A DNA stretch of 64,000 nt from an uncultured Oscillospiraceae bacterium (GTDB lineage Bacteria > Bacillota > Clostridia > Oscillospirales > Oscillospiraceae). Under the pieces are notes generated by a model, which was not told where the DNA came from, ran no database searches, and was given only the letters and a program-made list of their open reading frames with translations. Of the stretch, positions 3,279-23,546 are shown in pieces (within the stretch, counting starts at the first letter, position 1; each line of letters begins with the position of its first letter). The stretch covers positions 1,443 to 65,442 of the forward strand of contig CAYWNW010000008.1 of the NCBI GenBank assembly GCA_964459785.1, in the 5' to 3' direction. A program made the position numbers and the translations under genes.

Positions 3279-3283
3279 CTGCC

Positions 3284-4337: not shown

Positions 4338-4640
4338 TTGCGCATAGACTTATCTGAGGTGGTGGATCGGTTGAAAAAAGCTGTGCGCAAACACCCGATA
4401 ACTGAGCGCTGCAGATTGCCTGCAGAGCTTGTGCCGGGCGTGCCCAGAGTGACTCTGTCAGGAACAAGTGAGGCACAGATTGAAAACCACGGCGGGCTCA
4501 AAAGCTATACCGAAGACCTGATTGAAATTCGGGGCAAAAACATGCTGGTGCAGATTCGCGGTGAGGATTTGGAGCTGACGGCGATGACGAAAACGGAGCT
4601 TGTGATTCGCGGAATTATTGTTGCGGTAGAGTTTTGCTAA
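4338..4640 (+). CDS. yqfC: Sporulation protein YqfC
   Basis: About 90-100 aa with the YqfC-like core (VPRVTLSGTSEAQIENHGGL...IRGEDLEL...LVIRG), immediately upstream of yqfD. The start is uncertain; an alternative TTG at 4371 follows GAGGTGG. Confidence 0.7.
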   Translation: MRIDLSEVVDRLKKAVRKHPITERCRLPAELVPGVPRVTLSGTSEAQIENHGGLKSYTEDLIEIRGKNMLVQIRGEDLELTAMTKTELVIRGIIVAVEFC

Positions 4641-4653
4641 AGGAGGGTGCTCT

Positions 4654-5886: not shown

Positions 5887-6910
5887 AAGAATTATGCCGG
5901 TTGACCGAATGGAGCAGATAATCAGCGTTTTCGGCTCATTTGACAGAAACATACACATTATCGAAACCGAGTTTGCCGTCAAGGTAATTGACAGGGAGGC
6001 GGAGCTTCATATAACGGGCGAAGCGGAAAATGTAATGTACGCCGAAAAGGCGATAACAGGGCTTTTGTCCCTTGCGGCTCGCGGAGAGAATATTGACGAG
6101 CAGAACGTTCGCTATATCAGCAAGCTCGTGCGCGAGGGCGCGGAGAGCCAGATCGATAAAATCGCGGGCGACGTTATCTGCATAACGAGCAAGGGCAAGC
6201 CCGTAAAGGCGAAAACCATCGGACAGAAGGAATATGTTGACGCGATTGCGAAAAACACGATAACGCTCGGCATAGGCCCCGCCGGAACGGGCAAGACCTA
6301 TCTCGCCGTCGCCGCGGCAGTTTCCTCTTTCCGCAATAAAGAGGTCAACCGCATTATCCTCACCCGTCCAGCGGTTGAAGCGGGGGAGCGGCTCGGCTTT
6401 CTGCCGGGTGATCTGCAAAGCAAGGTCGATCCCTATCTTCGCCCCCTTTACGACGCGCTTTTCGATATGCTCGGCACGGAAACCTATAACAAATACCTTG
6501 AGCGCGGCAACATTGAGGTTGCGCCCCTTGCCTATATGCGCGGCAGAACGCTTGACGACAGTTTTATAATTCTTGACGAGGCCCAGAACACAACGCCCGA
6601 GCAGATGAAGATGTTTTTAACCAGAATCGGCTTCGGCTCAAAGGTCGTTGTTACGGGAGATATTACGCAAATTGACCTCCCGGGGGACAAACCGAGCGGA
6701 CTTAAGGAAGCCATGAAGGTTTTAAAGGACATTGAGGACATCAAAATTTGCAGACTTACGGGCGCGGACGTTGTGCGTCATGTTCTTGTGCAGAGAATCA
6801 TCAAGGCATACGAGGAGCTGGATAAGAAGCGCGCCCAGCCCGCCCCGAAAACCGCTCCGTCCAAAAACACCGCTCAGAAAACATACAAGAGGAAAACCAA
6901 TGAAGCATAA
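5879..6910 (+). CDS. phoH: PhoH-family ATPase
   Basis: Walker A GPAGTGKT, Walker B FIILDEAQN, and the PhoH signature VVTGDITQIDLP. phoH-ybeY-dgkA-era synteny is conserved. Confidence 0.95.
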   Translation: MIERIMPVDRMEQIISVFGSFDRNIHIIETEFAVKVIDREAELHITGEAENVMYAEKAITGLLSLAARGENIDEQNVRYISKLVREGAESQIDKIAGDVICITSKGKPVKAKTIGQKEYVDAIAKNTITLGIGPAGTGKTYLAVAAAVSSFRNKEVNRIILTRPAVEAGERLGFLPGDLQSKVDPYLRPLYDALFDMLGTETYNKYLERGNIEVAPLAYMRGRTLDDSFIILDEAQNTTPEQMKMFLTRIGFGSKVVVTGDITQIDLPGDKPSGLKEAMKVLKDIEDIKICRLTGADVVRHVLVQRIIKAYEELDKKRAQPAPKTAPSKNTAQKTYKRKTNEA

Positions 6911-7840: not shown

Positions 7841-8754
7841 GTAAAAAAGAACTGTCAGGCGACTATAAAACGAAGTCGGCGATGATTACCGTTGTGGGCC
7901 GCCCGAATGTCGGGAAATCCACCCTAACCAATACGCTTGTCGGTGAAAAAATCGCCATCGTGTCAAATAAACCGCAGACCACAAGAAACCGTATATGCGC
8001 TATTATTAACCGCGGCGACACGCAGATAGTGCTGCTCGATACCCCGGGCTTTCACAAGGCGAGGACCAAGCTCGGCGACTACATGGTCAAGGTCGTAAAC
8101 GAGAGCGTTGCTGATGTGGACGCGATTGTCCTCATGGTGGAGCCGATTGCCTCGGCGGGACCGCAGGAACTCGAGCTTATCGAAAAAATCAAGCAGAGCA
8201 AGTGTCCCGCCGTTCTGGTGATAAACAAAATCGACACCGTGCAAAAGGAGCAGCTTCTCGCCGTTATCGCGGCCTACTCCGCCCTTCATGATTTTGACGC
8301 GGTGGTTCCGATAAGCGCTAAAAAGCACGAGAACACGGACGAGCTGCTAAGCCAGCTCGAAAAATATGCCGCGCCCGGACCAAAGCTTTTCCCCGAAGAC
8401 GCGGTGACAGACCAGCCCGAAAGACAGGTTTGTGCCGAAATCGTCCGCGAGAAGCTTCTCAACTGTCTTGACAAGGAAATTCCGCACGGCACGGCTGTTG
8501 TCGTGACAAAGTTTTCCGAGCGCGAGGACACGGAGATAATAGACCTCGATGTCACGATTTATTGCGAAAAGGCGAGCCACAAGGGCATAATAATCGGGAA
8601 AAACGGCGAAATGCTCAAGAAAATCGGCGCTGCGGCTCGAGCTGACATCGAGAAATTCATGGGTACAAAGGTGTTCTTGCAGACATGGGTGAAGGTTAAG
8701 GACAATTGGCGCGACAGCGACAATCTTTTAAGAAATTTCGGTTACAGGGACTGA
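7837..8754 (+). CDS. era: GTPase Era
   Basis: G1 GRPNVGKST, G3 DTPG, G4 NKID, and a C-terminal KH domain (GIIIGKNGEMLKKIG). Confidence 0.95.
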   Translation: MSKKELSGDYKTKSAMITVVGRPNVGKSTLTNTLVGEKIAIVSNKPQTTRNRICAIINRGDTQIVLLDTPGFHKARTKLGDYMVKVVNESVADVDAIVLMVEPIASAGPQELELIEKIKQSKCPAVLVINKIDTVQKEQLLAVIAAYSALHDFDAVVPISAKKHENTDELLSQLEKYAAPGPKLFPEDAVTDQPERQVCAEIVREKLLNCLDKEIPHGTAVVVTKFSEREDTEIIDLDVTIYCEKASHKGIIIGKNGEMLKKIGAAARADIEKFMGTKVFLQTWVKVKDNWRDSDNLLRNFGYRD

Positions 8755-8868
8755 AAATCCATTGATTTGCATTCTCATAATTTTAATAAACGAGTAAAAA
8801 TTACCGAACAATTTTTCTCATAACGGACGAAGCGCGGGACATAATAAGTTCAGCGAGGTGAAGTCTTT

Positions 8869-9033
8869 ATGAAAGACTCCGGTCTTTGGGGAATGTTTTG
8901 CGAAACGGGCGAACCGTTCTGTTACCTTCTGTACAGGTCGGCTTTGAAAGAAAAAAAGAATAGGCCCGAAATTCCTCAGAGGGACACACTCGCTTTTGGC
9001 GGAACGGGTGAAAAACCCCGAGTCCGCTTTTGA
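8869..9033 (+). CDS. yqzL: YqzL-family small protein (54 aa, below the ORF-track cutoff)
   Basis: Hand-translated as MKDSGLWGMFCETGEPFCYLLYRSALKEKKNRPEIPQRDTLAFGGTGEKPRVRF. GAGGTG lies 10 nt upstream. The W..F..TG....YLLY pattern and the era-yqzL-recO position match Bacillus yqzL. Confidence 0.6.
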   Translation: MKDSGLWGMFCETGEPFCYLLYRSALKEKKNRPEIPQRDTLAFGGTGEKPRVRF

Positions 9034-9186
9034 GAGTAGCCGCGTCGGTTCGTGAAGAATTGTCTGCAAGCGGAGCGTCACAGCTTTGCAACGCGGGCAT
9101 GGTAAGTCGTTTTTCTCACCCTTATGGGAATACGAAAAAATGAATAATAAAAAATCACGAGCCGATGCGGCCGAGGTTTACATAAT

Positions 9187-9930
9187 ATGTTCAAAACAAC
9201 CAGAGCACTCGTCCTGAGAGAAGTAAAATATAAGGAAGCGGACAAAATTCTAACCGTACTCACCGAGGATGAGGGGAAGCTGACCGTTTCCGCCAGAGGC
9301 GTTATGCGCAGGGGCAGCAAAATTGCCGCTGCGTGTCAGTTTTTGACTTTTTCGGAGATGACGCTTTTCGAAAATCGCGGGAAATGGTATGTTGACGAGG
9401 CACAGACCGTTGAACAGTTTCTGGGCCTGCGCGAGGATATTGCGCTTCTGGCTCTCGGAACCTATTTTGCGGAGCTTCTGGAGGCGGTTTCAGACGAGGA
9501 CAGTCCGAATCCAGAGGTTTTGAGGCTGGGGCTTAACAGCCTTTACGCTCTCGGAAGCGGTTTGTACGCGCCGGAGCACATCAAGGCGGTTTTTGAGCTG
9601 CGTCTCATGTGCCTTTCGGGCTACGAGCCGGCTTTGGACTGCTGCCCCGTTTGCGGAAAAGAGGAAATGGATGTTCCCGTTTTCAGCACGCTCGGCGGAA
9701 CAGTTATCTGCGGGAAGTGCAGAAACTTAGAGTACGGCGAAACCTTTCCGCTCTGCGCGGCCTCCCTTGCCGCGATGAGGCACATCTCGGGCGCTGAAAA
9801 CAAGAAAATCTTTTCATTTTCATTGGATGACAAGGCGGCAAAGCGGCTTTACACCGTCTGCGAGGCCTATGTTTTAGCGCAGCTTGAGCGCAGGTTTTCC
9901 GCGCTCGATTATTGGAGAAGCGTGAAGTAA
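9187..9930 (+). CDS. recO: DNA repair protein RecO
   Basis: 247 aa with an N-terminal OB-fold segment and the zinc motif CPVCG...CGKC. It sits at the typical position after era. Confidence 0.9.
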   Translation: MFKTTRALVLREVKYKEADKILTVLTEDEGKLTVSARGVMRRGSKIAAACQFLTFSEMTLFENRGKWYVDEAQTVEQFLGLREDIALLALGTYFAELLEAVSDEDSPNPEVLRLGLNSLYALGSGLYAPEHIKAVFELRLMCLSGYEPALDCCPVCGKEEMDVPVFSTLGGTVICGKCRNLEYGETFPLCAASLAAMRHISGAENKKIFSFSLDDKAAKRLYTVCEAYVLAQLERRFSALDYWRSVK

Positions 9931-10509: not shown

Positions 10510-11186
10510 ATGACCAATTATCGCGAGGTTCTGAGGCTTAGTAGCCTCGGGCTCAACAAAGTGGAGATAGCCCAAAGCTGTGGCTGCTCAAGGAACACTG
10601 TAGCTGCAATATTGCAGCAAGCGGAGAGCTGTGGCTTAAAGTGGCCGCTGCCAGACTCTTTATCGGACAAGCATCTGGCAGAAATGATTTATCCTGCTGC
10701 ATCAGAAAAACCAGCCTTCAAAATGCCGGACTACGAGTATGTTCACCGTGAACTCCAGAAAAACGGCGTCACGCTGAATCTGCTGTGGCTGGAATACTGT
10801 GATGCCTGCAGGTCAGCAGGAGAGATACCATACCAGTCAACGCAGTTCAACAAATACTACAACGACTTTCTTGTGAAAAAGAACGCCACCATGCACCTGA
10901 ACCACAAGCCCGGTGAGATTATGCAGGTTGATTGGGCGGGAGATACGGGAACCGTAACAGATACGGATACAGGCGAAGCGATTCCAGCATACGTTTTTGT
11001 AGCCACACTGCCTTTCAGCGGCTACAGCTATGTGGAAGCGTTCTTTTCAATGAACCAGGAATGCTGGACGTCAGCTCACGTAAACGCCTACAGGTATTTC
11101 GGCGGAGTAGCCAGAATCATTCAGTGCGACAACCTGAAAACCGGAGTGGACAGGCACGGGCGCAATGAGGTTACTTTGAATCGAAC
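10510..11186 (+). pseudogene. istA: IS21-family transposase IstA, 5' fragment (about 226 codons); no istB
   Basis: N-terminal HTH (LNKVEIAQSCGCSRNTV) and a DDE core (MQVDWAG...CDNLKTGV...NRTY). The native sequence stops at about 11186-11190. The rest of the listed ORF (to 11289) is antisense read-through of hsdR. The fragment is GC-richer than the rest of the island. Confidence 0.8.
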
Positions 11187-12644
11187 CTATGTAGATTTAT
11201 CATCCTTTTCGATAGGAGTACCTGTAAATCCGATAAATGTTGCATTAGGTAACGCCTTTCTCATGTTCATGGAAAGGTTGGAATATTGACTTCTGTGTGC
11301 CTCGTCAGTAAAAACGATTACATTGGGCTTGTTGGTGAGCACTTCGATTTCCTTGTCGAAGAACAATGCTGAGGCTTGTGCTCCGTCCTCTAATACTGGG
11401 TTCTCATCAGACTTACATTGGAACTTCTGAATTGTAGTGCATATGATTTTTGCCTGCGCCTTAGACAACAGGGTTTTCATTTCCTGAACCGTTTCTGCTC
11501 TTGTAAGAATTTTGTCTAGATTGGATTCCGCAAGAGTATATTCAGAAGGGAACACCCTTGTAAAGGTCGCATAAAGTTGTTTATCCAAATCAATACGGTC
11601 TGTAATAATAACCAGCATAGAGTCCTGAAGTTCTTTGGTACGTCGTATCATCCTTGCGAGCATAACCATACTAAGCGATTTTCCCGAACCTTGTGTATGC
11701 CAGATGACCCCGCCTCTATCTAGCGGGGTTTTTCCGTTTTTAATTCTGGCAAGGGCTTTCATACAAGCACGGAACTGCTGATATCTTGCAAGTTTTTTTA
11801 TTCTTACATCGCCCTCAGTTTCATACATAATGAAAAACTGCATGACTTTCAGAAGATTATTCTTTTCAAGCAGACCTTGCAAAAACAGGTTTTGTCCGTT
11901 ATTTTCAATATCATCCATATCTTCTTTTTTAAAGGGATAAGGGTCTTTCCACTCCAGAAAGTAATCGTAACTGCTGCTGATTGTTCCAGCATAGGCATGA
12001 TACTTATTGATGATGCCCATGAAGAAGTTGGTATGGAACAGACGTTCCGCACCTTCAGATACGGAATCATCACGAATGTCCATGTACCTGCGAAGCTGAT
12101 TGTATGCGTCCTTTTTTCCAGCCTTAACATTTTCGGCATTCTCTTTAAAGGGAGATTTGGCTTCAATCACCACAACAGGTATACCGTTTATAAACAGAAC
12201 AATATCCGGAAAGATGGTTTTGTTTATACCCTGAACCTCATACTGGTTGGTTACTAAAAAGTCATTGTTTGATACATCATCAAAGTCTATGAATCGGACG
12301 GTCTGGTTCTTCTTCTGCCCATCAACAAACTGTGAAACGGTGAACTCAAGGTCAACGATTGTCTTATAGAGTTTTTCGTTAATTTCAAGAAGGGAAGTAC
12401 CAAGGGCTTCACTATTAATAAGAAACTTGACAGATGCATTTAATGAATCCTCGTTCATCCAAGGGTTCAGACGTTTTAAAGCAGCTCTTAACCTTTTGCC
12501 AAGAACGACATCACGAAAGGACTCCCTTTCACCATAAGTAGGAGCCAGTTTTTCGCCCTCTATGTAATCATAGCCAAGCTGATTAATGAGATAATCAATC
12601 GCAGGCTTTTCAACTAGGGTATATTCATTGCCTAAGTTTGCCAT
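11187..12644 (-). pseudogene. hsdR: Type I restriction enzyme R subunit HsdR, 3'-truncated (N-terminal 485 aa only)
   Basis: PD-(D/E)xK nuclease motif DIVLFINGIPVVVIEAKS, helicase motif I TQGSGKS, motif II TDEAHRSQ and motif III FTGTPI are present. The ORF stops right after motif III, so RecA lobe 2 and the C-terminal domain are absent. Confidence 0.85.
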
Positions 12645-12675: not shown

Positions 12676-13896
12676 TTACTGCATTACTCGGATTTTTCCC
12701 GTTAAGAGTTGTTCCATAAGAGCTTTTTTAAGCTGGATGAAATTTTCTCGTTGTTCAAGATAAATGTTTATATGTTTATCAAATTCCGATAGGATTAAAG
12801 CTATTTCTGCCTGTTCAACTAACGGAGGTTGTGCTATTTTGCTCTCTTTAAGAGATTTAAAATGCCTGTGATAACCTTGATTAACAATTGGAGTATTTTG
12901 TAATATGTAGTAGAAGAACCTATCATTAAATTTGCTGTTATCTGCCTTTAATATCTGAGTTCCATCTGCACCAACCGCAAATCTGAAGTCTACATATTTT
13001 ACAATTCTCGTATGGTCACCAAATACAATTACGGGTAGCTCCCCTTTGTATAGTTTTTCTTCATCATTTGTATAACCACAGATATTTTGTTGCCCTTGGT
13101 CAACTATCGGATAACTCCCGAGAGCTAAATACTCATTAGTTTTTAGCTGCTTGTATTGACTTTTTGTTTGTTTAATAAATGCTTCTTCAACCGTTAATAC
13201 TATCCACGATTTTGGTATTTTCCCAATCTCAGTATCTTTATACTCATTATGACCGATACCCTCTGTAAGAAGCTTTTTCATTATGCCTTTTTTAAGAAGC
13301 TGATAGTCCTCGATAGTCTTGTCCAGCCTCTCAATATGTTCATCTGTTGCGGAGAGAATTTCGGCTATGCGTTGTTGCTCATATTCTGTAGGAATGCATA
13401 TAATTAATGACTTTATATCCTTTAGTATAATTCTCCGTATTGCGGAACCCTTTTTCATATTAATTAATTTATTAATAGTTGACTCTGCCATAAGGTATTG
13501 AGATAGAAATGATGGGAATAAAACTTCAGTATTGGGCCTAATAATTGCAATAGATGACAACAATACAATATTATTATTTTGTTGTCTGAACAACATAATT
13601 TTTCCAATAGTTCCATCTTTAGACAGTAACACATCATCATACAATGGCCTACACCCATTTTTTTCTAGTTTATCAAAATCAGCTTTATCTATTGGTGTTA
13701 ACGATTCTAAATCAAAACCCTCTTTTTTCATATGTACAACAGTAGCAATATAATATTTTGATGAGTTTATTGGAGCTGGTGATGAATGAGAGCCATCAGT
13801 TATTGTTAAACAACTATCTTTCAAAGATTTTACTAACCAATTATCGGGTATAATGCCGACTTCTGTTTTCTTATACCCATCTTTTATCATCTTCAT
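12676..13896 (-). CDS. hsdS: Type I R-M specificity subunit HsdS (two target-recognition domains)
   Basis: 406 aa with two-TRD organisation, conserved central (EQQRIAEILS..D..I) and C-terminal (EQAEIALILSEFD...LLTGKIRV) helices. It lies between hsdM and hsdR. Confidence 0.85.
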   Translation of the reverse strand: MKMIKDGYKKTEVGIIPDNWLVKSLKDSCLTITDGSHSSPAPINSSKYYIATVVHMKKEGFDLESLTPIDKADFDKLEKNGCRPLYDDVLLSKDGTIGKIMLFRQQNNNIVLLSSIAIIRPNTEVLFPSFLSQYLMAESTINKLINMKKGSAIRRIILKDIKSLIICIPTEYEQQRIAEILSATDEHIERLDKTIEDYQLLKKGIMKKLLTEGIGHNEYKDTEIGKIPKSWIVLTVEEAFIKQTKSQYKQLKTNEYLALGSYPIVDQGQQNICGYTNDEEKLYKGELPVIVFGDHTRIVKYVDFRFAVGADGTQILKADNSKFNDRFFYYILQNTPIVNQGYHRHFKSLKESKIAQPPLVEQAEIALILSEFDKHINIYLEQRENFIQLKKALMEQLLTGKIRVMQ

Positions 13897-13907: not shown

Positions 13908-15419
13908 CTATATCCTTTCAAAGCCAAGCTGTTGCAGGAATGAGTTGATTTTTTCTTTAGAATCAGCAATTTCCTGTTCTCTTTCAGAAATTCTACTGAT
14001 GACTTCTTCGATGTTGATTTCTTCTTCTTCCTCGGATGTATCAACGTATCTTGTTATATTAAGATTATATTCATTTTTCTGGATTTCTTCCAAGGATGCT
14101 ACCTTAGCAAATTTATCTTCATCCGAAAAAGCTTTATAAGCAGCAACAATATGCTCAATATCTTCTGGTCTGAGTTTGTTTTTATTACCGTCTTTCACAA
14201 AGCCCTGTGAAGCCTCGATAAACAGAACCTTGCCCTTTTTCTCCGCAGGCTTATTCTTATTCAAAATAATAACCGCAGCCGGAATGGATGCTCCATAAAA
14301 CAGGTTGTTGGGGAATCCGATAACTGCTTCAAACAGGTCATCCTCAAGAATTCCTTGCCTAATTTTACCCTCTTCTCCTCCTCGAAACAGAATACCGTGA
14401 GGAACGACACTTGCCATGATGCCCTTAGAGTTTAACGATGCAAGCATATGCTGAACAAAAGCCAAATCTCCATAAGAGGATGGAGCAACTCCGTAATTGA
14501 ATCGACTATAATCATTCTTTTCCGCAATTTCTCTACCCCAGTTTTTGAGAGAAAACGGAGGATTACTCAAAACCATATCAAAGGTTTTGAGAATAGAACC
14601 CTCTGTGTTTTTTGGTTCTCTTATAGTGTCGCCTTTCCAAATGGTTGCGCCAGACACGTCATGGAGCAGCATATTAAGCTTTGCAATGGCCCAAGTAGTA
14701 AGGTTGATTTCCTGCCCAAACAATTGCAAATTCCTGTGATTTTGATTGTTAGCTTTGACATACTCGATTGTGCTGATTAAAAAGCCACCAGAGCCAGCAC
14801 ATGGGTCGTAAATGCTCATGCCTTCCTTAGGCTTTAGCAGTTTAACCATGACCTCTTTTATCTCTTTTGGGGTATAGAATTCTCCACCCTTTGTTCCGCC
14901 ATCGTCGGCAAACTGTTTTATGAGGTACATATATGCATCACCTAGGATGTCGGGGGTTTCTAATCCATCGTTGGAAAGGTTCATTGCGTCAAATATTTGA
15001 ATAAGCTGATTGAGTTTGCCGTCCGGAACTCTTTCCTTATCATTATAGTTGGCAGTTGTAAGAACTCCGACGAGCTCGGAGTTTCTGGGTTCATCCTCAA
15101 TTGCCTTAAAAGCCTTGTCCAATTCAGCGCCAATATTGAGGTTGAGGTCTTTGAAGATATCCCATCTTGCCTGCTTGGGGATGAAAAAAGTTTTATAGGC
15201 TTTAGCATCCTCTAATACTTTCTCTAAGGCATCTTCCGGAAGCTTTGAGAATTGTTGTTTTTTCTCTTCTCGTTCTGCACTAAACTGGTCATTTATTCTT
15301 TTCAAAAAAAGCATACCAAATATGTATTCCATATATTGCGAAGAATTGAGCGTACCTCTTAAGATATCAGCGCAATCCCATAGCTTTTTCTCAAGTGTTG
15401 CTAAATCTATCTTTTGCAT
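13908..15419 (-). CDS. hsdM: Type I R-M N6-adenine DNA methyltransferase HsdM
   Basis: 503 aa with an HsdM N-terminal helical domain, the SAM motif DPCAGSGGF and the catalytic NPPF (VLSNPPFSLKNW). Confidence 0.9.
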   Translation of the reverse strand: MQKIDLATLEKKLWDCADILRGTLNSSQYMEYIFGMLFLKRINDQFSAEREEKKQQFSKLPEDALEKVLEDAKAYKTFFIPKQARWDIFKDLNLNIGAELDKAFKAIEDEPRNSELVGVLTTANYNDKERVPDGKLNQLIQIFDAMNLSNDGLETPDILGDAYMYLIKQFADDGGTKGGEFYTPKEIKEVMVKLLKPKEGMSIYDPCAGSGGFLISTIEYVKANNQNHRNLQLFGQEINLTTWAIAKLNMLLHDVSGATIWKGDTIREPKNTEGSILKTFDMVLSNPPFSLKNWGREIAEKNDYSRFNYGVAPSSYGDLAFVQHMLASLNSKGIMASVVPHGILFRGGEEGKIRQGILEDDLFEAVIGFPNNLFYGASIPAAVIILNKNKPAEKKGKVLFIEASQGFVKDGNKNKLRPEDIEHIVAAYKAFSDEDKFAKVASLEEIQKNEYNLNITRYVDTSEEEEEINIEEVISRISEREQEIADSKEKINSFLQQLGFERI

Positions 15420-15679: not shown

Positions 15680-16234
15680 TTATACGCTTAGACTATCAAC
15701 CATAAATTCAACGAATATAATTGCACTTGTATGTAGAGATTCTACATTTTCAAAAGTCTTTGCTTCCAAAGCATCATTCATAGATATTAAATCATTGTGG
15801 GCTAAAGAGTTTCTCAACGAACACATTTCTTGAAAAGCTTTCATGCTGCGCTCTAACGTTTCGTCTGCCGAAATTTCGTGTACTAGTGTTTCTTTAAATT
15901 CTTTGCCCAGATAGGCAAGAGGGCTTAAAAAAGCGTTTGCCTCTTTAAGCTTGTCTCGTCCAAAGTCGAACATTTTGAAAAACGAAAACATTTCCAGATA
16001 TCCGAAACCATGTGGTTTTGATTTATATTTCTTTGCATGTGTTTGCGAGTAAGATTTTAAAGACAGTGTTATTTGTGTTTCATAGTAACTTGCGCAAGAT
16101 AAGACAAACATTTTTTTTAAATGACGCTGAATGTGCTGTGCTACGGACGGTTCTTCTGGAAATACCTTATCCTGAATAAACTTATAATCTTCTATCATCT
16201 CTCCAATAGCCGAGAGTGAATTGGGTGTATCCAT
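15680..16234 (-). CDS. Small HEPN-domain protein (Rx4H motif), putative RNase effector
   Basis: 184 aa with helical composition. RNSLAH at residues 141-146 (nt 15797-15814) fits the HEPN Rx4-6H signature. The start lies 14 nt downstream of the DUF262 gene stop. Confidence 0.6.
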   Translation of the reverse strand: MDTPNSLSAIGEMIEDYKFIQDKVFPEEPSVAQHIQRHLKKMFVLSCASYYETQITLSLKSYSQTHAKKYKSKPHGFGYLEMFSFFKMFDFGRDKLKEANAFLSPLAYLGKEFKETLVHEISADETLERSMKAFQEMCSLRNSLAHNDLISMNDALEAKTFENVESLHTSAIIFVEFMVDSLSV

Positions 16235-16248
16235 TACTCCCCCTCCAA

Positions 16249-17436
16249 CTATTGCAAGATAATAGACTCAATAGCCTTTTCAATTCTCTTTTTTACATGT
16301 GCCGGTTGAGCGGTTCGCTGCTGAGACGCATTGAAAAATTCATTATCATTTTTCAAATCGCGAAGACTTCCTGATAATATGGTTCTTTCATTTAACCCAT
16401 TTATCTGAATTTCCCTGCAGACTGCAACGAAAACGGCTTCAAAATAGGAAATTACAAATTTCCCATTTTCATTTTTAAATGAGTTTTTATCCAACGCTCG
16501 GCAACTGGTCCAAAAATCGGTAAACAACCTTGATAATTCATCGATTTTATCGGCATCATAGTTTTTAGCAGTTTCCGAATATCTATTAAGGAATACTCGC
16601 ATTGGAGATTTGTATTCTTCATACATCTCTAGCATAGCGAATGCCCTTATTAACACTTCTACTTCATTCATATGCAAATCGGGTTCTTTTTTTCCAAGGA
16701 AAGTTCGCCAAGCCGGATAACGATTCAATTCAATAACTTTGTCATAAAAAGAGGAATAAAAAAGGCTCATTCTGATTTCTTGCGGTTCGAGTGTAACACC
16801 GCCGCTGTTAAGCCTGCTGAATATTTCAAACATTGATGAATAATTATCGTCGGGTGCTAACTGGCGTATCGTAATCGTACGAATAGTTCTGTTAAAATCG
16901 AAACTCGCTTTAAAATCGAACTCTCTATTTGAAGGAAGTGTGTCATAGTTTTTCCCGTTTAATGGATTCTTTTCATTCGATGCTGATGGTAACTTCAAGT
17001 TAAAATCTTCAAAATTTTCGCCAGATAAATCCTCAGGAGGGATTTCTTTACCTCTGGATAAAAAATTTCTAATAATGGCTCTTCCTGTATCATTTTTTGG
17101 AAAACGCTTATTTTTAAACAAATATATAGTTACAAGGCGTTGCTGACCATCAATTACAAGAAAATCGTTACGTGCTTGCTCAAAAATGAATATCTGGGGA
17201 ATTGGTAAGCCTATAATTATGGATTCAATAAACTTTGATGCCATATCTTTTTTCCAGATATAATTTCGCTGAAATGATGGTATTTTTATATATCCGCGTT
17301 GAATAAGGTTCATAATAACCGATATGTTATAATCGTTAGGAAGGCAATCCACCTCATATGGCTTAATGGTCAATTCCCCCTCATCAGTTTCTTCCTCAAA
17401 AACAACTTCATTCTTATTATTTTGACCGTAAGACAT
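16249..17436 (-). CDS. DUF262 (ParB-like N-terminal nuclease/NTPase fold) protein without a DUF1524/HNH domain
   Basis: 395 aa with the DUF262 signatures IPSFQRNYIW and VIDGQQRLVTIY. The C-terminal half is helical and has no His-Me finger motif. Confidence 0.8.
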   Translation of the reverse strand: MSYGQNNKNEVVFEEETDEGELTIKPYEVDCLPNDYNISVIMNLIQRGYIKIPSFQRNYIWKKDMASKFIESIIIGLPIPQIFIFEQARNDFLVIDGQQRLVTIYLFKNKRFPKNDTGRAIIRNFLSRGKEIPPEDLSGENFEDFNLKLPSASNEKNPLNGKNYDTLPSNREFDFKASFDFNRTIRTITIRQLAPDDNYSSMFEIFSRLNSGGVTLEPQEIRMSLFYSSFYDKVIELNRYPAWRTFLGKKEPDLHMNEVEVLIRAFAMLEMYEEYKSPMRVFLNRYSETAKNYDADKIDELSRLFTDFWTSCRALDKNSFKNENGKFVISYFEAVFVAVCREIQINGLNERTILSGSLRDLKNDNEFFNASQQRTAQPAHVKKRIEKAIESIILQ

Positions 17437-17912
17437 GAGTTTAGTCCTCCTTATTATATGAATATTAAAGTTCAGTCATTCATGCACACCAAATATTGCT
17501 AAATTATATCATTGTTTTTAAAAAACCGCTACTATTATCGTTTGATATTAATTGCAAATCAGCATCTATAAGTGTTTTTACGACTGTATCTTAATAAAGT
17601 TGTATCTTGCTACTCACATTTTCTGTTAATTCAATATTAATTTATATATGACTGAGCCCTGTTATGTTTGTTAGGCTCTGGCTTCGTTGAATTTCCGAAA
17701 TTCCTCTATTTTGAGTTAATTCAAATTTTTGGGATGTTGGGCATTAATGTCCGCAATCTCCACGATATAAAGCCCTGTATACTGATTGCTCTATGGCATT
17801 TGGCATTAATAATGAGCTTGGAAGCCATCAAAGGTGTCGGTACTTCTTTCCAAAAGGAACACAAACCAGCATAGACCTGTTAGGCAAAAAGGAGCAGGAA
17901 GCTAAAACTGAT

Positions 17913-18071
17913 ATGAATAGAGATTACGAATATCTGCGCCATACGATTGATATGGTAAGGAAATCGATGGGATGTATGGATGAAATGCAGAGCGCACTGC
18001 TGAGGCTCAATGCATCGGCCCAAAGAGTGTGCGGAATAGTATTGGAAAAACTCTGCAAAGGAGGAGTTTAA
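17913..18071 (+). CDS. Hypothetical 52-aa protein, first gene of the Zn-ribbon operon
   Basis: ATG at 17913 within the listed 17793 ORF. The stop lies 1 nt before the next gene start. There is no recognisable motif, and the coding status is uncertain. Confidence 0.35.
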   Translation: MNRDYEYLRHTIDMVRKSMGCMDEMQSALLRLNASAQRVCGIVLEKLCKGGV

Positions 18072-18072
18072 A

Positions 18073-18813
18073 TTGAACCAAACTAAAACGGGTCGCCCAT
18101 CAAAGGCTACCGAGTTAACGAAAATAGCTCTTGTAGATGAATATTTTCACCTTGTTGTCAAAGGCAACGCCAATGAACTGCAATACAATAAAATAGCGTT
18201 GTTCGCACAAAAAAAAGGCTATGAACTTTCTGAAATTGATTTCCGTCGCAAGAATTCAGATACTCGCAAACATATTGAGATACTCAAATCTAGGCAAAAT
18301 GAACAAGCTCAAGCCTTAGAGATTCCTGCTTATGTGCCATGGAATATTGATGTCTTACTTAACAAGAAACCATGTACGAATGCGGAAATTCGCAAATGGG
18401 TCTTACAGCATGAAGAGGTACATAAGGCTTTGATTATGTCTTCTGCATGGGCTATTGAACAGTATGAAAGTCAAAGAACGGAAATCTGCGTCTTAAAGGA
18501 AAGAGTCAAGAATCTCGAAAGCATTAATCAAGAAATGGAAGAAAACCTGACTAATACTCAACAAGAGTTAGTCAAATCAAAGGGCAAATGCACTGTCTTA
18601 TTGCAGCATTGGAATGATATTGCGCCACAGACTCATATCGCTAATATAGCTTTTTCACAGAAAACAAGTGAAAATAGAGAGATAATAAGTTTGACGGATT
18701 ACATTTTTAAGGATGTAAAAATACAGGATGATGCGCACGTGAATATGGCTAAAGATACGGAAATAGACAACCTAATAAAAGAGCTAAGGAAAGGACTTAA
18801 GGCGGATAATTAA
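18073..18813 (+). CDS. Hypothetical protein: N-terminal HTH-like TGRPSK segment plus a long coiled coil
   Basis: 246-aa ORF with a TTG start, tightly coupled to both neighbouring genes. No catalytic motif was recognised. Confidence 0.55.
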   Translation: MNQTKTGRPSKATELTKIALVDEYFHLVVKGNANELQYNKIALFAQKKGYELSEIDFRRKNSDTRKHIEILKSRQNEQAQALEIPAYVPWNIDVLLNKKPCTNAEIRKWVLQHEEVHKALIMSSAWAIEQYESQRTEICVLKERVKNLESINQEMEENLTNTQQELVKSKGKCTVLLQHWNDIAPQTHIANIAFSQKTSENREIISLTDYIFKDVKIQDDAHVNMAKDTEIDNLIKELRKGLKADN

Positions 18814-18814
18814 T

Positions 18815-19876
18815 ATGACAGCGTTACTAAAAAACGCGAACCCCGAGCTGTTTGCTCAACTTCTGAATAAAAAGAATTCTGATATAAATGTTGACTTACT
18901 AAAACAATATAGCCATAACATCGTGTGGTGGCGCTGTGTATATGGACATGAATGGCAAGCAACAGTATATAGCCGTTCTGCAGGGCAAGGTTGTCCCTTT
19001 TGCAGTAGAAAAAAAGTAATTGTGGGAGAAACGGATTTGGCAACAGTAAATCCTGTGCTTGCTGCCCAATGGCACCCAATCAAAAATGGAGAGCTTTACT
19101 CTACGGATGTTCCAGAGCAAAGCTGCAAGAAGGTTTGGTGGGTATGTGAGTATGGACATGAATGGCAAGCAATAGTAAGTAATCGTTCAAAAGGGCGTGG
19201 CTGCCCCGTTTGCAGCGGATATAAAGTAATTGTGGGAGAAACGGATTTAGCAACAGTAAATCCTGTGCTTGCTGCCCAATGGCACCCAATCAAAAATGGA
19301 GAGCTTTACTCTACGGATGTTTCTGAGCAAAGCAACAAAAAGGTTTGGTGGGTATGTGAACATGGTCATGAATGGCAAGCACATGTAAGTAATCGTTCAA
19401 AAGGGCATGGCTGCCCCTTTTGCGGTGGAAAAAAAGTAATTGTGGGAAAAACGGATTTGGCAACAGTAAATCCTGTGCTTGCTACCCAATGGCACCCAAT
19501 CAAAAATGGAGAGCTCTACTCTACGGATGTTTTTAAGCAAAGCCACAAGAAGGTTTGGTGGTTATGTGAACATGGGCATGAATGGCAAGCAACAGTGAAA
19601 AGTCGTTTTGAAGGAAGAGGCTGTCCATACTGCTATGGTAGAATAGCAATTGAAGGTGAAACGGATTTAGCAACAGTAAACCCTGTGCTTGCCGCCCAGG
19701 TGCATCCAACAAGAAATGGGAATCTTAAAGCTATAGATGTTACTGAAAAAAGTGGCAAAAAAGTTTGGTGGTTATGTGACCATGGACATGAATGGCGAGC
19801 AACCGTAATTAAACGTTCTTATGGAAATGATTGTCCATTTTGTTCTGGAAGAAGATATAGTCCAAATCACATTTAA
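18815..19876 (+). CDS. Protein made of five tandem treble-clef zinc-ribbon repeats (DUF4379-like)
   Basis: 353 aa with a five-fold repeat of WWxCxxGHEWQAxVxxRSxGxGCPxC plus the linker ETDLATVNPVLAAQWHPIKNGELYSTDV..S.KKV. Confidence 0.75.
   Translation: MTALLKNANPELFAQLLNKKNSDINVDLLKQYSHNIVWWRCVYGHEWQATVYSRSAGQGCPFCSRKKVIVGETDLATVNPVLAAQWHPIKNGELYSTDVPEQSCKKVWWVCEYGHEWQAIVSNRSKGRGCPVCSGYKVIVGETDLATVNPVLAAQWHPIKNGELYSTDVSEQSNKKVWWVCEHGHEWQAHVSNRSKGHGCPFCGGKKVIVGKTDLATVNPVLATQWHPIKNGELYSTDVFKQSHKKVWWLCEHGHEWQATVKSRFEGRGCPYCYGRIAIEGETDLATVNPVLAAQVHPTRNGNLKAIDVTEKSGKKVWWLCDHGHEWRATVIKRSYGNDCPFCSGRRYSPNHI
18925..19850 (+). repeat. About 4.4 tandem copies of a 210-bp unit inside the first Zn-ribbon gene
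   Basis: GTAATTGTGGGAGAAACGGATTT recurs at 19016, 19226 and 19436, with a diverged copy at 19646. The three central units differ at only scattered positions. Confidence 0.85.
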
Positions 19877-19892
19877 AAAAGGAGTAAGAGCA

Positions 19893-20951
19893 ATGTTGCT
19901 TAAAGATGCATCCCCAGAGATATATGCACAGATTGACCCTACAAAAAACACCGATATTGAAATTGAAAAGCTAAAGGCTCAATCAAACATTGATTTGTTT
20001 TGGCGATGTGACAAAGGTCATAGTTGGCACGCTAAAGTGTGTAGCAGAATGAGAGGCTCAAAATGTCCATACTGTCAGCATAGAGCTGTTCTTCCGGGGT
20101 TCAATGATTTGGCTAGTACATACCCTGAAATTGCAGGGGAACTTCATCCTATAAAGAATGAAAATCTTCGCGCTGATACAATATCTCCTTATTCAAACCA
20201 GAATGTATGGTGGATATGTTCTTTCGGTCATGAGTGGAAAACTAAAGTAAATAACAGGACACATGGTAAAGGATGTCCACACTGTTATAAAGAACGTTTT
20301 GCGTTTTCAGAAAACAATTTAATGGCTAGATATCCTGAAATTGCTGCACAATGGCACCCAACTAAAAATGGGGAACTGAAACCCTCAGATGTGTCTGCGC
20401 GTAGTCGTAAAAAAGTTTGGTGGAAATGTGAATGTGGGCATGAGTGGCAAGATACAGTTCTGAACCGAACCGTTAGAGGAGCAAACTGCCCATATGATTT
20501 AGGTAAAATTTATCCTCTTCAAGAAAATAATTTAACTATTAGATATCCTGAAATTGCTGCACAATGGCACCCCACTAAAAATGGAGAACTGAACCCCTCA
20601 GATGTTTTTGCGCATAGTCATAAAAAAGTTTGGTGGATATGTTGTAGTGGGCATGAGTGGCAAGCTACGGTTCTGAACCGAACCAATAATGGGACAGATT
20701 GCCCATACTGTTCAAGACGTTTTGCTATTTCAGGAACAAATGACCTACAGACGTTGTATCCGAATATTGCCAAAGAATGGTGTACGGAATTAAATGAAGA
20801 GTTGGACCCATCCAACTTCTTGCCCAAGTCCGGTAAGAGTGTTTGGTGGGAATGCTCAAAAAACCATAACCATAGGTGGAAAGCAACAATCATATCGCGG
20901 ACAGCTTTAGAGACAGGGTGCCCGTATTGTTCCGGACGTAGGGGAGAATGA
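19893..20951 (+). CDS. Paralogous five-repeat zinc-ribbon (DUF4379-like) protein
   Basis: Start moved to the ATG at 19893 (MLLKDASPEIYAQ, parallel to the N-terminus of the upstream paralogue) after AAGGAG. Five W.C..GH.W...V..R...G..CP.C units are present, and the third has lost the CxxC (CPYD). Confidence 0.75.
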   Translation: MLLKDASPEIYAQIDPTKNTDIEIEKLKAQSNIDLFWRCDKGHSWHAKVCSRMRGSKCPYCQHRAVLPGFNDLASTYPEIAGELHPIKNENLRADTISPYSNQNVWWICSFGHEWKTKVNNRTHGKGCPHCYKERFAFSENNLMARYPEIAAQWHPTKNGELKPSDVSARSRKKVWWKCECGHEWQDTVLNRTVRGANCPYDLGKIYPLQENNLTIRYPEIAAQWHPTKNGELNPSDVFAHSHKKVWWICCSGHEWQATVLNRTNNGTDCPYCSRRFAISGTNDLQTLYPNIAKEWCTELNEELDPSNFLPKSGKSVWWECSKNHNHRWKATIISRTALETGCPYCSGRRGE

Positions 20952-20978
20952 GGGGGGCATTAAATGCCCCCTCTTTTT
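20952..20978 (+). terminator. Rho-independent terminator of the Zn-ribbon operon
   Basis: GGGGGCAT / ATGCCCCC stem with a 3-nt loop, followed by a CTTTTT tract. Confidence 0.75.
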
Positions 20979-21069
20979 ATTTGTTAAGCAGCTTGTTTCA
21001 GGAGAAATGAATGCCATCTTAATAATTAGTGCCGTTGTAATTCGTAAGTGTTTGTGCTATAATTTCATA

Positions 21070-21084
21070 TAAAACCGACAAAAC
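21070..21084. repeat. Right inner inverted repeat TAAAACCGACAAAAC
   Basis: Exact reverse complement of 10145-10159. Confidence 0.8.
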
Positions 21085-21152
21085 TATCAATTTGGAAATG
21101 TTAATCCCAGAGGTGATTTGTTATAGAAAACGACAAAAATGGCAATTTTAAA

Positions 21153-23546
21153 ATGTCAGTCCCAAAGGCGACACAGCTATACGAAAAATCGATAAAAACA
21201 CTTGAGCTTCCGGCGGTTTTGGAGCTGCTTTCAAAGGAAGCGGTAAGCCTTCCGGCTAAGGAGGCCGTTCTTTCTCTGCGCCCGTCGGACAGCGAATATG
21301 AGGTTAAGCGCAGGCTCGGCGAAACGAGCGCGGCGAAGGCCATGATGGTGCTCAAGGGCAGCCCTTCCTTCGGCGGCGTGCGCGATGTGCGCTCCTCACT
21401 CTCGAGAGCGGGCATAGGCGGAATGCTCAATACGCGTGAGCTTCTGGACATCGCGGGCGTTTTACAGTCCGCAAGGACAGTGCGTGCCTACGCGGGCGGC
21501 GAGAGCTGCGGAAGAAGCGATATTGACTTCCTGTTCTCATCTCTCATGGCAAATAAATATCTTGAGGAAAGAATAACGAGCTCCATCATAGGAGAGGACG
21601 AAATCGCAGACTCTGCAAGTGCCGATCTTGCGACAATCCGCCGCCTTATCAGAGCGGCCTCCGCCAGAGTGCGCGAGGCTCTGCAAAAAATAATTTCCTC
21701 TCCGTCCTTTTCAAAAGCGCTTCAGGAGCCGATTATCACAACGCGCTCCGACCGCTATGTCGTGCCGGTCAAAGCGGACCATAAAAGCAGTATCCCGGGG
21801 CTTGTACACGACGTTTCCTCAAGCGGAGCTACGCTTTTTATCGAGCCGATGGCGGCTGTCAAGGCAAATAACGAGCTTCGGGAGCTCCACGCGAAGGAAA
21901 AGCTTGAAATTGAACGCATTTTAGCCGAGCTTTCCGCCGAGTGCGGAGACCATGCAAACGATATTATTCGGGACTTTAATGTGCTTGTGGAGCTTGACAG
22001 CATTTTTGCCAGAGCGAAGCTGAGCTATAAGCTCGACTGTCAGGAGCCCGTTATATCGGAGGGACGGGTTTACCTACGTAAGGCGCGCCACCCTCTGCTG
22101 CCGAAGGAGAGCGCCGTGCCCATCACAATTGAGCTCGGACATGAATTTGACACGCTTGTCATAACGGGACCAAACACGGGCGGAAAAACAGTTTCGCTCA
22201 AAACCCTGGGGCTTCTTTGCATTATGGCAGCCTGCGGTCTGCACATTCCTGCTGCGGACGGGAGCATGGTTCCCGTTTTTCGCAGCGTGCTTGCCGATAT
22301 AGGCGATGAGCAAAGCATTGAACAGTCGCTGTCAACATTTTCTTCGCACATGACGAATATAGTGAGAATACTGGATGAGTGCGACGACAAGAGCCTTCTC
22401 CTTTTTGATGAGCTCGGCGCGGGAACAGACCCCGTTGAAGGCGCGGCGCTTGCCGTTGCCATCATCGAAAGCGCGAGGAAAAAAGGCTCTGTAACTGCGG
22501 CGACAACGCATTACGCCGAGCTTAAAATTTACGCCACCACAACGGACGGCGTGCAGAATGCCTCCTGCGAGTTTGATGTGGAGTCGCTTCGTCCGACTTA
22601 CAGACTGCTCATCGGAATACCCGGCAAATCAAACGCCTTTGCCATCAGCGAAAGGCTGGGGCTGCCTCAGGCGGTAATTGAAGACGCGAAGGGCAGGGTA
22701 AGCTCCTCGAGCGCCAGCTTCGAGGAAACCATAGAAAAGCTCGAAAAGCAGAGACAGCTGCTTGAAAAGGACAGGGAAGAAGCCGAAAAGAAGCTGCGCG
22801 AGGCGCAGGAACAGGCTAAAAAAGCTGAAATGCTTCGCCGTGAACTCTCGGTGCGCCTTGAAAAGGCCGACGAAAAGGCAAGGCGTGAGGCGGAGCGTAT
22901 TCTTGACGATGCCAGAAGAACCGCGGAGCGAACTTTGAGCGAGCTTGACGAAATGCGCAAACGCCAAAACAAGGAATATGACCATATACGCGAAAACGAG
23001 GCCCGCGCCGAGCTCAGACGCAGCCTTAACGAGGCAAACGAACGCCTCTTGAGCCGCCAACAGGAAACGGAGCAGCCGAAGGTATCCTCCCGTCCCGTCA
23101 GGGTCGGCGACACGGTTGAACTCATATCAATGGGTGTTAAGGCGAGCGTGCTTGCGATTTCAGATGACAGAGCCCTTACGCTTCAGGCGGGTATTATGAA
23201 GGTTACGGCACGGGAGGATGAAGTTTACCTTCTGGAGAATCAGAACGTAAAGGAGAAACCGACCTTTTCCCAGCAAAGCGGGGCAACTCTCCGTACCATG
23301 TCCACAAGCTCGGAGCTTGATTTGCGCGGAATGATGATTGACGAAGCGATTCCCGTACTCGAAAGATATATCGACAGCGCCGTTTTGGGAAGGCTGGAGA
23401 AAGTGACTATCATACACGGCAAGGGAACGGGAGCACTTCGTACCGCGGTTGCACAGAGCCTGAAGCTCAACAAGGCTGTTAAATCCTTCCGTCTTGGACG
23501 TTTCGGCGAGGGGGAAACAGGCGTTACCATTGTGGAACTGGGGTAA
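21153..23546 (+). CDS. mutS2: Endonuclease MutS2 (MutS domain + C-terminal Smr)
   Basis: 797 aa with Walker A GPNTGGKT, DELGAGTDP, a long coiled coil, and the C-terminal Smr motif LDLRG...IIHGKGTGALR. Confidence 0.95.
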   Translation: MSVPKATQLYEKSIKTLELPAVLELLSKEAVSLPAKEAVLSLRPSDSEYEVKRRLGETSAAKAMMVLKGSPSFGGVRDVRSSLSRAGIGGMLNTRELLDIAGVLQSARTVRAYAGGESCGRSDIDFLFSSLMANKYLEERITSSIIGEDEIADSASADLATIRRLIRAASARVREALQKIISSPSFSKALQEPIITTRSDRYVVPVKADHKSSIPGLVHDVSSSGATLFIEPMAAVKANNELRELHAKEKLEIERILAELSAECGDHANDIIRDFNVLVELDSIFARAKLSYKLDCQEPVISEGRVYLRKARHPLLPKESAVPITIELGHEFDTLVITGPNTGGKTVSLKTLGLLCIMAACGLHIPAADGSMVPVFRSVLADIGDEQSIEQSLSTFSSHMTNIVRILDECDDKSLLLFDELGAGTDPVEGAALAVAIIESARKKGSVTAATTHYAELKIYATTTDGVQNASCEFDVESLRPTYRLLIGIPGKSNAFAISERLGLPQAVIEDAKGRVSSSSASFEETIEKLEKQRQLLEKDREEAEKKLREAQEQAKKAEMLRRELSVRLEKADEKARREAERILDDARRTAERTLSELDEMRKRQNKEYDHIRENEARAELRRSLNEANERLLSRQQETEQPKVSSRPVRVGDTVELISMGVKASVLAISDDRALTLQAGIMKVTAREDEVYLLENQNVKEKPTFSQQSGATLRTMSTSSELDLRGMMIDEAIPVLERYIDSAVLGRLEKVTIIHGKGTGALRTAVAQSLKLNKAVKSFRLGRFGEGETGVTIVELG

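Follow-up and report, generated by a model that had tools for sequence, protein, structure and literature searches.

Between positions 17913 and 20951 of a 64,000-nucleotide (nt) stretch of contig CAYWNW010000008.1 (assembly GCA_964459785.1, an uncultured Oscillospiraceae bacterium), hereafter the window, four open reading frames (ORFs) follow one another on the plus strand with gaps of 1-16 nt. An initial annotation, made from the letters of the window, gave these coordinates correctly and took the four ORFs for an operon of uncharacterised island cargo: a short first gene, a helix-turn-helix (HTH)/coiled-coil protein (gene 2) and two paralogous zinc-ribbon repeat proteins (genes 3 and 4). 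Comparison with related loci led us to a different reading. We consider it probable, though well short of certain, that 17778-20951 represents the 3' portion of a compact tyrosine-recombinase transposon, decapitated in this copy, whose intact relatives carry three recombinase-like genes (A, B and C), a small gene D and one or two zinc-ribbon arrays; this estimate takes in the roles proposed below for D (gene 2) and for the arrays (genes 3 and 4). The features of the locus are as follows, with L001 denoting the closest relative.

17778..18071, plus strand: 3' remnant of gene C, ~97 codons, from an IntB-like large tyrosine recombinase; recognized by homology to L001 and by a hidden Markov model (HMM) of the C family
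17793-18071, plus strand: longer ORF containing 'gene 1'; C remnant
17913-18071, plus strand: ORF formerly called gene 1; lies within the C remnant
18073..18813, plus strand: gene 2 (D), 246 aa; TTG start, AGGAGG ribosome-binding site
18815..19876, plus strand: gene 3, 353-aa array of five DUF4379 treble-clef zinc-ribbon units (five PF14311 matches)
19893..20951, plus strand: gene 4, paralogous 352-aa array of five DUF4379 units (five PF14311 matches)
20890..20951, plus strand: right limit of the ~99%-identity block shared with L001, by sliding identity; ~20 codons before the gene 4 stop
20952..20972, plus strand: intrinsic-terminator-like hairpin and T run directly 3' of gene 4, by terminator scan
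17437..17777, no strand: AT-rich spacer foreign to the element; no L001 homology left of 17778

The cassette in the window and its closest relative

The sole close relative of the window cassette lies on a 27.8-kb contig (L001/L063) of an uncultured Oscillospiraceae metagenome-assembled genome (MAG), where gene 2 is 99% identical. There, a same-strand string encodes A (465 aa), B (814 aa), C (206+342 aa, apparently frameshifted), D, gene 3 and gene 4. The window aligns with this string over 17778-22058, from 'gene 1' through genes 2-4 into mutS2. To the left of 17778 the homology ends abruptly, inside C codons, which places the junction between 17777 and 17778. The last 92 residues of the 342-aa ORF are identical to the product of window ORF 17793-18071, and the C-family HMM matches window 17751-18068 at profile positions 443-533 of 533 (E = 5e-32); a profile search found no other fragment of A, B or C in the 64-kb window. 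These comparisons establish the truncation. Judged by its sequence, 'gene 1' is the in-frame 3' tail of gene C, a tyrosine-recombinase gene that has been truncated, and no gene of its own; the four-gene operon is thereby ruled out. Because homology stops at 17778, the DUF262 gene to the left and its AT-rich spacer are foreign sequence joined at the truncation, and it is because the element is cut there that the cassette adjoins the defence genes of the window. With A, B and most of C gone, the window copy is immobile on its own.

As the L001 copy also lies beside mutS2, the two copies occupy the same chromosomal site. Sliding identity between them is 98-100% over 17778 to ~20890 and then drops to 74-90%; the flanking mutS2 genes are ~78% identical, and sequence past ~20890 is homologous only at this host-level divergence. 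Because the copies are so much more alike than mutS2, the pattern suggests that the element either entered diverged hosts recently or was exchanged between them, in each case at this one site. Genes 2-4 of the window are probably a recent relic. The ~99% block stops ~60 nt before the gene 4 stop. All three window genes are intact with usable start contexts, while the L001 copy is decaying in parts, its gene 4 being interrupted by a stop codon. The two copies differ by too few substitutions for a verdict on selection; in gene 2 there are four, of which two are synonymous. The ~99% identity dips only inside the arrays, at window 19078-19277 and 20378-20777, and L001 gene 3 carries a different unit at position 2; these dips point to unit shuffling or gene conversion within the arrays. 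No terminal repeat motifs were found for the window/L001 element, the left end of which is undefined.

The intact element in other Clostridia

We assembled a census of 53 loci through relatives of C, taking one genome per species from Lachnospiraceae, Butyrivibrio, Oscillospiraceae and other Clostridia. The order A-B-C holds in all 53, and every intact locus has three recombinase-like genes. In the clade to which gene 2 belongs (37 loci, 35 informative), the array starts -16 to +25 nt from the end of D in 35/35 loci. In a sister clade, it directly follows a ~250-aa D-like gene, 733-821 nt past C, in 10 of 11 informative loci. A second route, through relatives of gene 2, yielded six informative loci, that is, with sequence beyond D; in 6/6, C lies upstream (with B and A where the contig reaches) and DUF4379 units start at the D stop. 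The co-conservation of the 246-aa protein with zinc-ribbon arrays, which the initial annotation had suggested looking for, is thus strongly positive, and overall the array is linked to the recombinase-gene cassette in 45/46 informative loci, establishing the cassette as conserved. The arrays comprise one or two ORFs with 4-17 units at ~70 aa per unit, and hence are without a nuclease domain. The longest, L064 11799-15623 (1275 aa, 17 units) and L065 12307-16410 (1368 aa, 15 units), both stand directly after D.

The array also diverges along with its neighbours. Identities for A/B/C/D/array run at 69/59/53/49/59% in one comparison and 55/43/42/36/50% in another, and array identity tracks that of A-D over the whole range of divergence, down to 30-50%. 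Because divergence tracks A-D with unit number preserved, the array is, on these alignments, a co-inherited component, unlike exchangeable cargo. The layout extends to a distant Firmicutes MAG (L004, HGW-Firmicutes-7), in which proteins of 439, 681, 535 and 259 aa are followed by two DUF4379 arrays. A, B and C of L001 and L004 are homologous position by position (E = 2e-19, 6e-32 and 4e-29, respectively; 25-27% identity). Downstream of the L004 arrays come a 53-aa ORF and then a protein of 474 aa whose C-terminus holds an HNH domain (10973-12397; E = 3e-6); this protein could be a separate nuclease partner in that lineage. Further away, two plasmids carry A-B-C-D-like cassettes: pE33L54 of Bacillus cereus (L013, 4409-10566) and pAZOPL1 of Paenibacillus lautus (L014, 4768-10772). 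Their genes are annotated as an integrase, an 'HTH domain protein' (~840 aa), a tyrosine recombinase and a hypothetical protein (~200 aa), and a YolD-like gene lies just upstream of both cassettes.

Residue conservation in A, B and C, judged on 35-47 unique sequences, establishes the recombinase signatures. A is an ordinary tyrosine recombinase of ~430-465 aa with invariant R, K, HxxR and Y. C is a large tyrosine recombinase (~520-560 aa) with invariant R215, K244, R345, H368 and Y377 and a Cys cluster. B is a large, divergent recombinase-like protein (~555-815 aa) in which R434, K487, R590, H592, Y606 and four Cys are invariant; its catalytic-type residues are kept in 40/40 sequences, with only the first His of HxxR replaced. 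A and C give weak integrase/Xer matches in Pfam and NCBIfam. B has no match in Pfam, in NCBIfam or among phages, and a tblastn search of plasmids with B found matches in Bacillus and Paenibacillus only.

Mobility and site specificity are likewise visible in the sequences. Copies in Pseudobacteroides cellulosolvens, an Oscillospiraceae MAG and Lactonifactor are 85-94% identical over only ~6.9-7.6 kb, a block that runs from A to ~345 nt past the array. The left end of each copy falls immediately behind the stop codon of a host gene; these host genes are homologous but only 60-67% identical. Because each copy begins at the stop of a homologous, diverged host gene, this indicates site-specific insertion in the three genera. 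In L054, a 21-kb locus, the identity profile places the start of the element at ~6515, with the stretch 5834-6032 corresponding to the diverged host gene. TTTTGTAGAT/ATCTACAAAA motifs cluster at both element ends in inverted orientation. In L054, all seven exact copies of TTTGTAGAT lie inside the element, six of them at the two ends, and the left junction of L055 bears the palindrome TTTTGTAGAT-AAA-ATCTACAAAA, which resembles a recombinase core site. No tRNA was found as a target of the element. Cultured hosts of the element include Butyrivibrio sp. INlla16, Butyrivibrio sp. NC3005 and Pseudobacteroides cellulosolvens DSM 2933. Butyrivibrio sp. INlla16 has two 100% identical copies and a third, and many contigs consist of just the ~7-8 kb cassette; the element is apparently a compact, abundant and active family in gut and rumen Clostridia.

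Five groups of tyrosine-recombinase transposons are recognized, of which SEs (IntA-Tfp-IntB-Srap) and GInts (GinABCD) share a four-gene logic (PMC10214605, PMC5385486). The intact relatives (53 loci) show the same core, with three recombinase-like proteins plus an auxiliary protein in one orientation at one end; the window copy retains only the last ~97 codons of C, plus D. SEs have the same one-directional, overlapping order of an ordinary recombinase, a large divergent recombinase-like protein, a large recombinase and a small auxiliary protein, and they too insert site-specifically and carry no conjugation machinery. They differ in being reported only from Gammaproteobacteria, in having variable cargo (e.g. 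resistance genes) and in lacking zinc-ribbon arrays; moreover, Tfp has the recombinase fold but is without the RHRY catalytic residues, whereas B keeps invariant R, K, R, H and Y. Further SE traits are an intermediate in the form of a strand-biased nicked circle and a 6-bp footprint. A PSI-BLAST search by the SE authors gave no homologs outside Gammaproteobacteria (PMC10214605). GInts have three integrase-like genes and a small fourth protein at the 5' end of the element, all of them essential (PMC5385486). As here, downstream genes start at the stop of the fourth gene, and the element integrates site-specifically where a host gene ends. GInts are reported in Firmicutes too, truncated gin operons are common, and short AT-rich 3' ends and 10-17 nt imperfect direct repeats at the flanks are among their traits (PMC5385486). 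Their cargo, however, is highly variable and spans 2.5-70 kb, whereas our element is a ~7 kb unit with the DUF4379 array as its only extra gene and inverted TTTTGTAGAT motifs at its ends. GinC lacks the first Arg, which A, B and C all keep, and GinD, called 'small' (PMC5385486), appears to be a shorter protein than D (~245 aa, 95-residue helix).

Two further groups share part of this plan. Both are transposons of Firmicutes or of broad host range that use several tyrosine recombinases. Tn554 is highly site-specific and needs a small helper, TnpC, but it has two recombinases (TnpA, TnpB) against three in the intact loci. RIT elements have three recombinases, as here, but no D-like protein or array genes (PMC10214605). 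Because B keeps residues that Tfp and GinC lack and the cargo structure differs, membership of the SE or GInt family is not established. In the literature we searched, neither a link between DUF4379/treble-clef arrays and tyrosine-recombinase elements nor this Clostridial family is described. DUF4379, SEs and GInts are themselves known. Little is understood of multi-recombinase transposons such as SEs, GInts, Tn554 and RITs, and most work on SEs and GInts concerns Proteobacteria. In the family delineated by the present loci, the nuclease-free DUF4379 array is an essentially invariant fifth gene that co-evolves with those for recombination.

Recombination in SEs and GInts depends on a small auxiliary protein whose N-terminal part is weakly HTH-like and which also has a coiled coil (PMC10214605, PMC5385486). 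The AlphaFold2 (AF2) model of gene 2 (mean pLDDT 85) has an N-terminal 'GRPxK' arm, an N-terminal helical domain (residues 14-82), a long helix of ~95 residues (103-197) and a C-terminal helix, in good agreement with the HTH-like segment and long coiled coil first seen in the sequence. A word-indexed search had returned a single relative, 99% identical, as if gene 2 were an orphan; an exhaustive phmmer search found ~40 relatives of 229-266 aa that share an 'MGRPxK' arm, a helical module, 'Y..LDI', a coiled coil and 'EN.YL..IR...YP'. Against Pfam and PDB sequences the family gave coiled-coil noise only, and gene 2 matched no PHROG family. BLASTP detected no similarity between gene 2 and the 259-aa protein of L004, a sister-clade locus; hhalign joins that protein to the D family (probability 90.5%, E = 1.3e-6). 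As a small protein with a weak HTH-like N-terminus and a coiled coil, encoded fourth in the core, gene 2 fits the Srap/GinD slot, and by analogy it is most likely a recombination helper comparable to Srap, GinD and TnpC.

The zinc-ribbon arrays and their role

An HMM search found five matches to PF14311 (DUF4379) in each array protein: gene 3 scored 295.7 bits (E = 6e-90) and gene 4 303.8 bits (E = 2e-92), against a cut-off of 24.5. This confirms both the five ~70-aa repeats per protein and the family assignment of the initial annotation. The repeat had been delimited in a rotated phase relative to Pfam, in which the unit runs from '..DLAT..P.LA.EW' to 'C-P-x-C'. The ligand pattern is C-x3-H-x14-C-x2-C, in line with the set first proposed. 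The unit thought to have lost its second knuckle, gene 4 unit 3, is indeed altered (CPYD for CPxC, nt 20487-20498), but only its last Cys is gone rather than the whole knuckle; L001 has the same CPYD. The 5 x 70-aa units fill genes 3 and 4, with no extra or nuclease domain, and the reported absence of enzymatic motifs holds, as none of the proteins has an enzymatic match in Pfam, NCBIfam or PADLOC. At the nucleotide level, the tandem period is 210 nt in gene 3 (4.2 copies) and 213 nt in gene 4 (1.9 copies), and units 2-4 of gene 3 are 79-89% identical to one another. The AF2 model of gene 3 shows five regular units (pLDDT 93.3, pTM 0.66). Both proteins are basic (pI 8.8 for gene 3 and 8.6 for gene 4), and an exact-protein look-up of the two found no record.

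Across 802 units compared, the zinc-ligand residues are invariant within a near-invariant scaffold (L12, P17, W23, N28, P33, WW45-46, C48, H52, W54, R61, C67, P68, C70). The variable positions concentrate next to the first knuckle and on the short helix around R61. Twelve of these columns, compared within nine pairs of recently duplicated units, carry 58 non-synonymous and 6 synonymous differences, compared with 52 and 62 elsewhere, a signal that is suggestive but not conclusive.

The relatives of the arrays offer a further indication. Repeats alone make up 94 of the 120 closest gene 3 homologs; the other 26 have an extra domain, in most cases either a Vsr/EDxHD-like nuclease with the motif 'IEYDGxxxH' or a GIY-YIG/T5orf172-like domain that was recognized by motif only; such comparisons establish the nuclease fusions. 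A fold search of the viral structure library BFVD with gene 3 returned 141 significant matches, the top ones being giant-virus and phage 'restriction', 'homing' and 'HNH' endonucleases, and PHROG 'endonuclease' families match the arrays through their repeat regions (E = 8e-32 and 2e-27). In the literature, 3-5 DUF4379/CapR-like modules precede EDxHD/Vsr nucleases and are proposed as DNA-binding modules (PMC12350094, PMC5513546). The arrays joined to EDxHD/Vsr or GIY-YIG-like homing endonucleases of phages, giant viruses and bacteria use the same ~70-aa treble-clef unit (PMC12350094, PMC5513546, PMC3239194), in tandems of 3-8 as a proposed DNA-recognition module. Genes 3 and 4 and the other element-borne arrays differ from these in having no nuclease domain and in lying in a recombinase operon instead of an intron, intein or free-standing homing-endonuclease gene. 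DUF4379 arrays are also widespread in mobile DNA beyond the recombinase transposon, because a conjugative element (L007) carries two, of 216 aa (2359-3009) and 571 aa (8001-9716), lying between genes for a DNA methylase and for a relaxase, with ArdC close by.

These observations are consistent with a model in which the intact element is a unit of ~7-9 kb, read in one direction as A, B, C, D and then immediately one or two nuclease-free arrays. A, B and C would perform the strand exchange, both at the element ends and at the target, as suggested by their conserved residues and by analogy with tested systems. D would serve as a Srap/GinD-like auxiliary or bridging factor, and the array would give the recombination complex extended sequence recognition of the target site, the element ends or both, paralleling the DUF4379-type arrays that appear to serve fused Vsr-type and GIY-YIG-like nuclease domains in this way. 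Given their position, their co-divergence and the nuclease fusions of their relatives, the arrays are most likely the DNA-recognition subunit of the element. Multivalent nucleic-acid binding, one of the options raised in the initial annotation, is the role best supported by the nuclease fusions and the endonuclease fold and profile matches.

Several points weigh against this model. GInts and SEs work without such arrays, and the L013/L014 plasmid cassettes have A-B-C-D without DUF4379, so that the array is not intrinsically required by such machinery and is a clade-specific addition. The terminal TTTTGTAGAT motifs look like ordinary recombinase core sites, which need no array. In one sister-clade locus, L016, the array lies 7 kb downstream. 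The 12-column signal rests on nine unit pairs that are not independent of one another, and A-D were likened to SE and GInt proteins by gene order, features and published descriptions rather than by sequence comparison with reference proteins. A Foldseek search with gene 2 returned nothing significant (best E = 0.67), the sub-significant matches at E >= 0.67 being to homeodomain, StbA and TetR-like folds. The only solved structures with the array fold are kinetoplastid mitoribosome proteins (mt-SAF33 and mS66), from an RNA-protein context. DNA binding by D and the arrays, and a part for them in recombination, are what we infer from position, co-divergence and the nuclease fusions.

The arrays might instead be stable cargo or passengers, either derivatives of a DUF4379 homing endonuclease that lost its nuclease and came to rest behind D, or DNA-binding regulators or anti-restriction factors of benefit to the element or its host once transfer has occurred; we regard this as unlikely, though it is the strongest of the competing explanations. 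GInt cargo begins exactly at the ginD stop, where the arrays sit, so that the array could be a first, very stable cargo gene. Many DUF4379 arrays lie outside such elements, as in L007 with its relaxase and methylases, the closest homologs are predominantly repeat-only (94/120), distant A-B-C-D cassettes lack arrays, and there are weak, sub-threshold Lar/anti-restriction-like matches. These last cover the zinc knuckle only, however, and SE and GInt cargo is highly variable, whereas the array occupies the same place in 45/46 loci and is usually the sole non-core gene in ~7 kb. Divergence in step with A-D to 30-50% identity at a constant unit number also speaks against a passenger, as does a start that overlaps or abuts D (-16 to +25 nt), which suggests translational coupling. 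Finally, no element-borne array retains a nuclease domain, at ~70 aa per unit.

The initial annotation had raised, by association, the possibility of a defence, anti-defence or sensing module that acts with or against the neighbouring type I restriction-modification (R-M) and DUF262-HEPN genes. Defence genes do lie directly upstream in three loci (type I R-M plus DUF262/HEPN in the window, Hachiman in L001 and Lamassu-like genes in L011), and mobile elements often carry counter-defence genes. These neighbours differ in every locus and stand outside the shared element, the invariant partners of which are recombinases; in the window they were joined to the cassette by the truncation at 17778, and the type I R-M system there is itself broken. 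PADLOC-DB v2 has no hit for genes 1, 2 and 4 and for gene 3 only 15-17 bits, to zinc-ribbon segments of DrmA/DrmD. With the intact relatives tied to recombinases in 45/46 loci, neither island cargo nor a defence role by association is supported for genes 2-4, and we consider a defence module improbable. Less probable still is that the arrays bind RNA or act as protein scaffolds without targeting DNA, in the manner of the kinetoplastid mitoribosomal DUF4379 proteins. Among solved structures, only these mitoribosomal proteins and assembly factors are significantly similar in fold or sequence (6yxx_E2 at E = 1e-12; mt-SAF33; mS66), and they share the fold, with a zinc-ribbon unit recognizable by sequence. 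They differ in belonging to a eukaryotic organellar ribosome, in having one or few units and in being unrelated to mobile DNA, whereas the same arrays are recurrently fused to DNA endonuclease domains in bacteria and viruses (PMC12350094) and here form part of a DNA-recombination operon.

Returning to the arrays as DNA-recognition subunits, a bolder extension, which we put forward as speculative and doubtful, is that DUF4379 units form a modular DNA code with which arrays programme the integration site of a three-recombinase transposon; the hypervariable positions near the invariant Arg and the first knuckle would then let each ~70-aa unit recognize a few base pairs. If true, this would be a protein-array-guided, site-specific recombinase, with a logic like that of zinc-finger or transcription activator-like effector (TALE) arrays coupled to tyrosine recombinases and, in relatives, to homing nucleases. 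Modular reading of DNA would also offer a new scaffold for programmable DNA targeting. More generally, the model proposes something concrete and testable for DUF4379, a large orphan family: that it supplies recombination and homing machineries with their DNA-recognition subunit. For the annotation of the window, it implies a recently decapitated, immobile remnant and no defence module.

Neighbouring genes and minor features of the locus

The type I R-M locus of the window is encoded on the minus strand (hsdM 13908-15419, hsdS 12676-13896, hsdR 11187-12644). An IS21-like transposase fragment (10510-11289, plus strand; rve and HTH domains) cuts hsdR off behind the SWI2/SNF2 N-lobe, and the restriction subunit is probably inactive, judging from this interruption. 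Between it and the cassette, 15680-17436 (minus strand) includes a 395-aa DUF262/GmrSD_N protein (PADLOC NsnA, E = 4e-54; PD-T4-2_A, E = 1e-42), followed by a 184-aa HEPN_RiboL-PSP protein; the two form a two-gene defence candidate that is unrelated to the zinc-ribbon cassette and outside the element. Upstream of the element, L001 carries Hachiman HamA and a DEAD/ResIII helicase (HamB) at 1-2403, and L011 Lamassu-like LmuB_C, MC3, CTD7 and AAA_15 at 1-5042. That three elements abut defence genes could reflect a hot-spot preference.

The DUF262 gene ends at 17436, and the AT-rich spacer from there to the 'gene 1' ORF measures 476 nt, matching the ~475 bp first reported; its part up to 17777 is the upstream region of this divergent gene. 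On the plus strand, the spacer has only weak promoter-like sites, and a convincing promoter for genes 2-4 was not found there. The gene 3 start codon lies 1 nt past the gene 2 stop, and gene 4 has a GGAG ribosome-binding site 9 nt upstream of its ATG. GC content is 0.33-0.42 across ~11 to 21 kb of the window and ~0.50 in the flanks. Besides the coding repeats, no inverted or direct repeats were found around the window cassette. An Rfam scan of 17300-21300 gave a group I intron candidate at 19659-19884, in the end of gene 3, which we dismissed as a chance match (22.4 bits against a gathering threshold of 50, E = 0.012).

The strong terminator expected after gene 4 is present as a hairpin of 9 pairs (6 G-C) followed by a T run at 20952-20972. 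Its arms read GGGGGGCAT..ATGCCCCC in the window and GGGGTCA..TGACCCC in L001 (~12880-12900), differing by compensatory changes, and because the hairpin is kept in this way between two genomes, the structure is under selection. Farther downstream, a good sigma-70-like promoter with a TG-extended TATAAT (21035-21063) precedes mutS2, which starts at 21153. Between the two lies a direct repeat, AAACCGACAAAACTATCAATTT (~21070-21095) and AAAACGACAAAAATGGCAATTTT (21127-21150), which is kept in a diverged Oscillospiraceae genome and may be a candidate regulatory site of mutS2.

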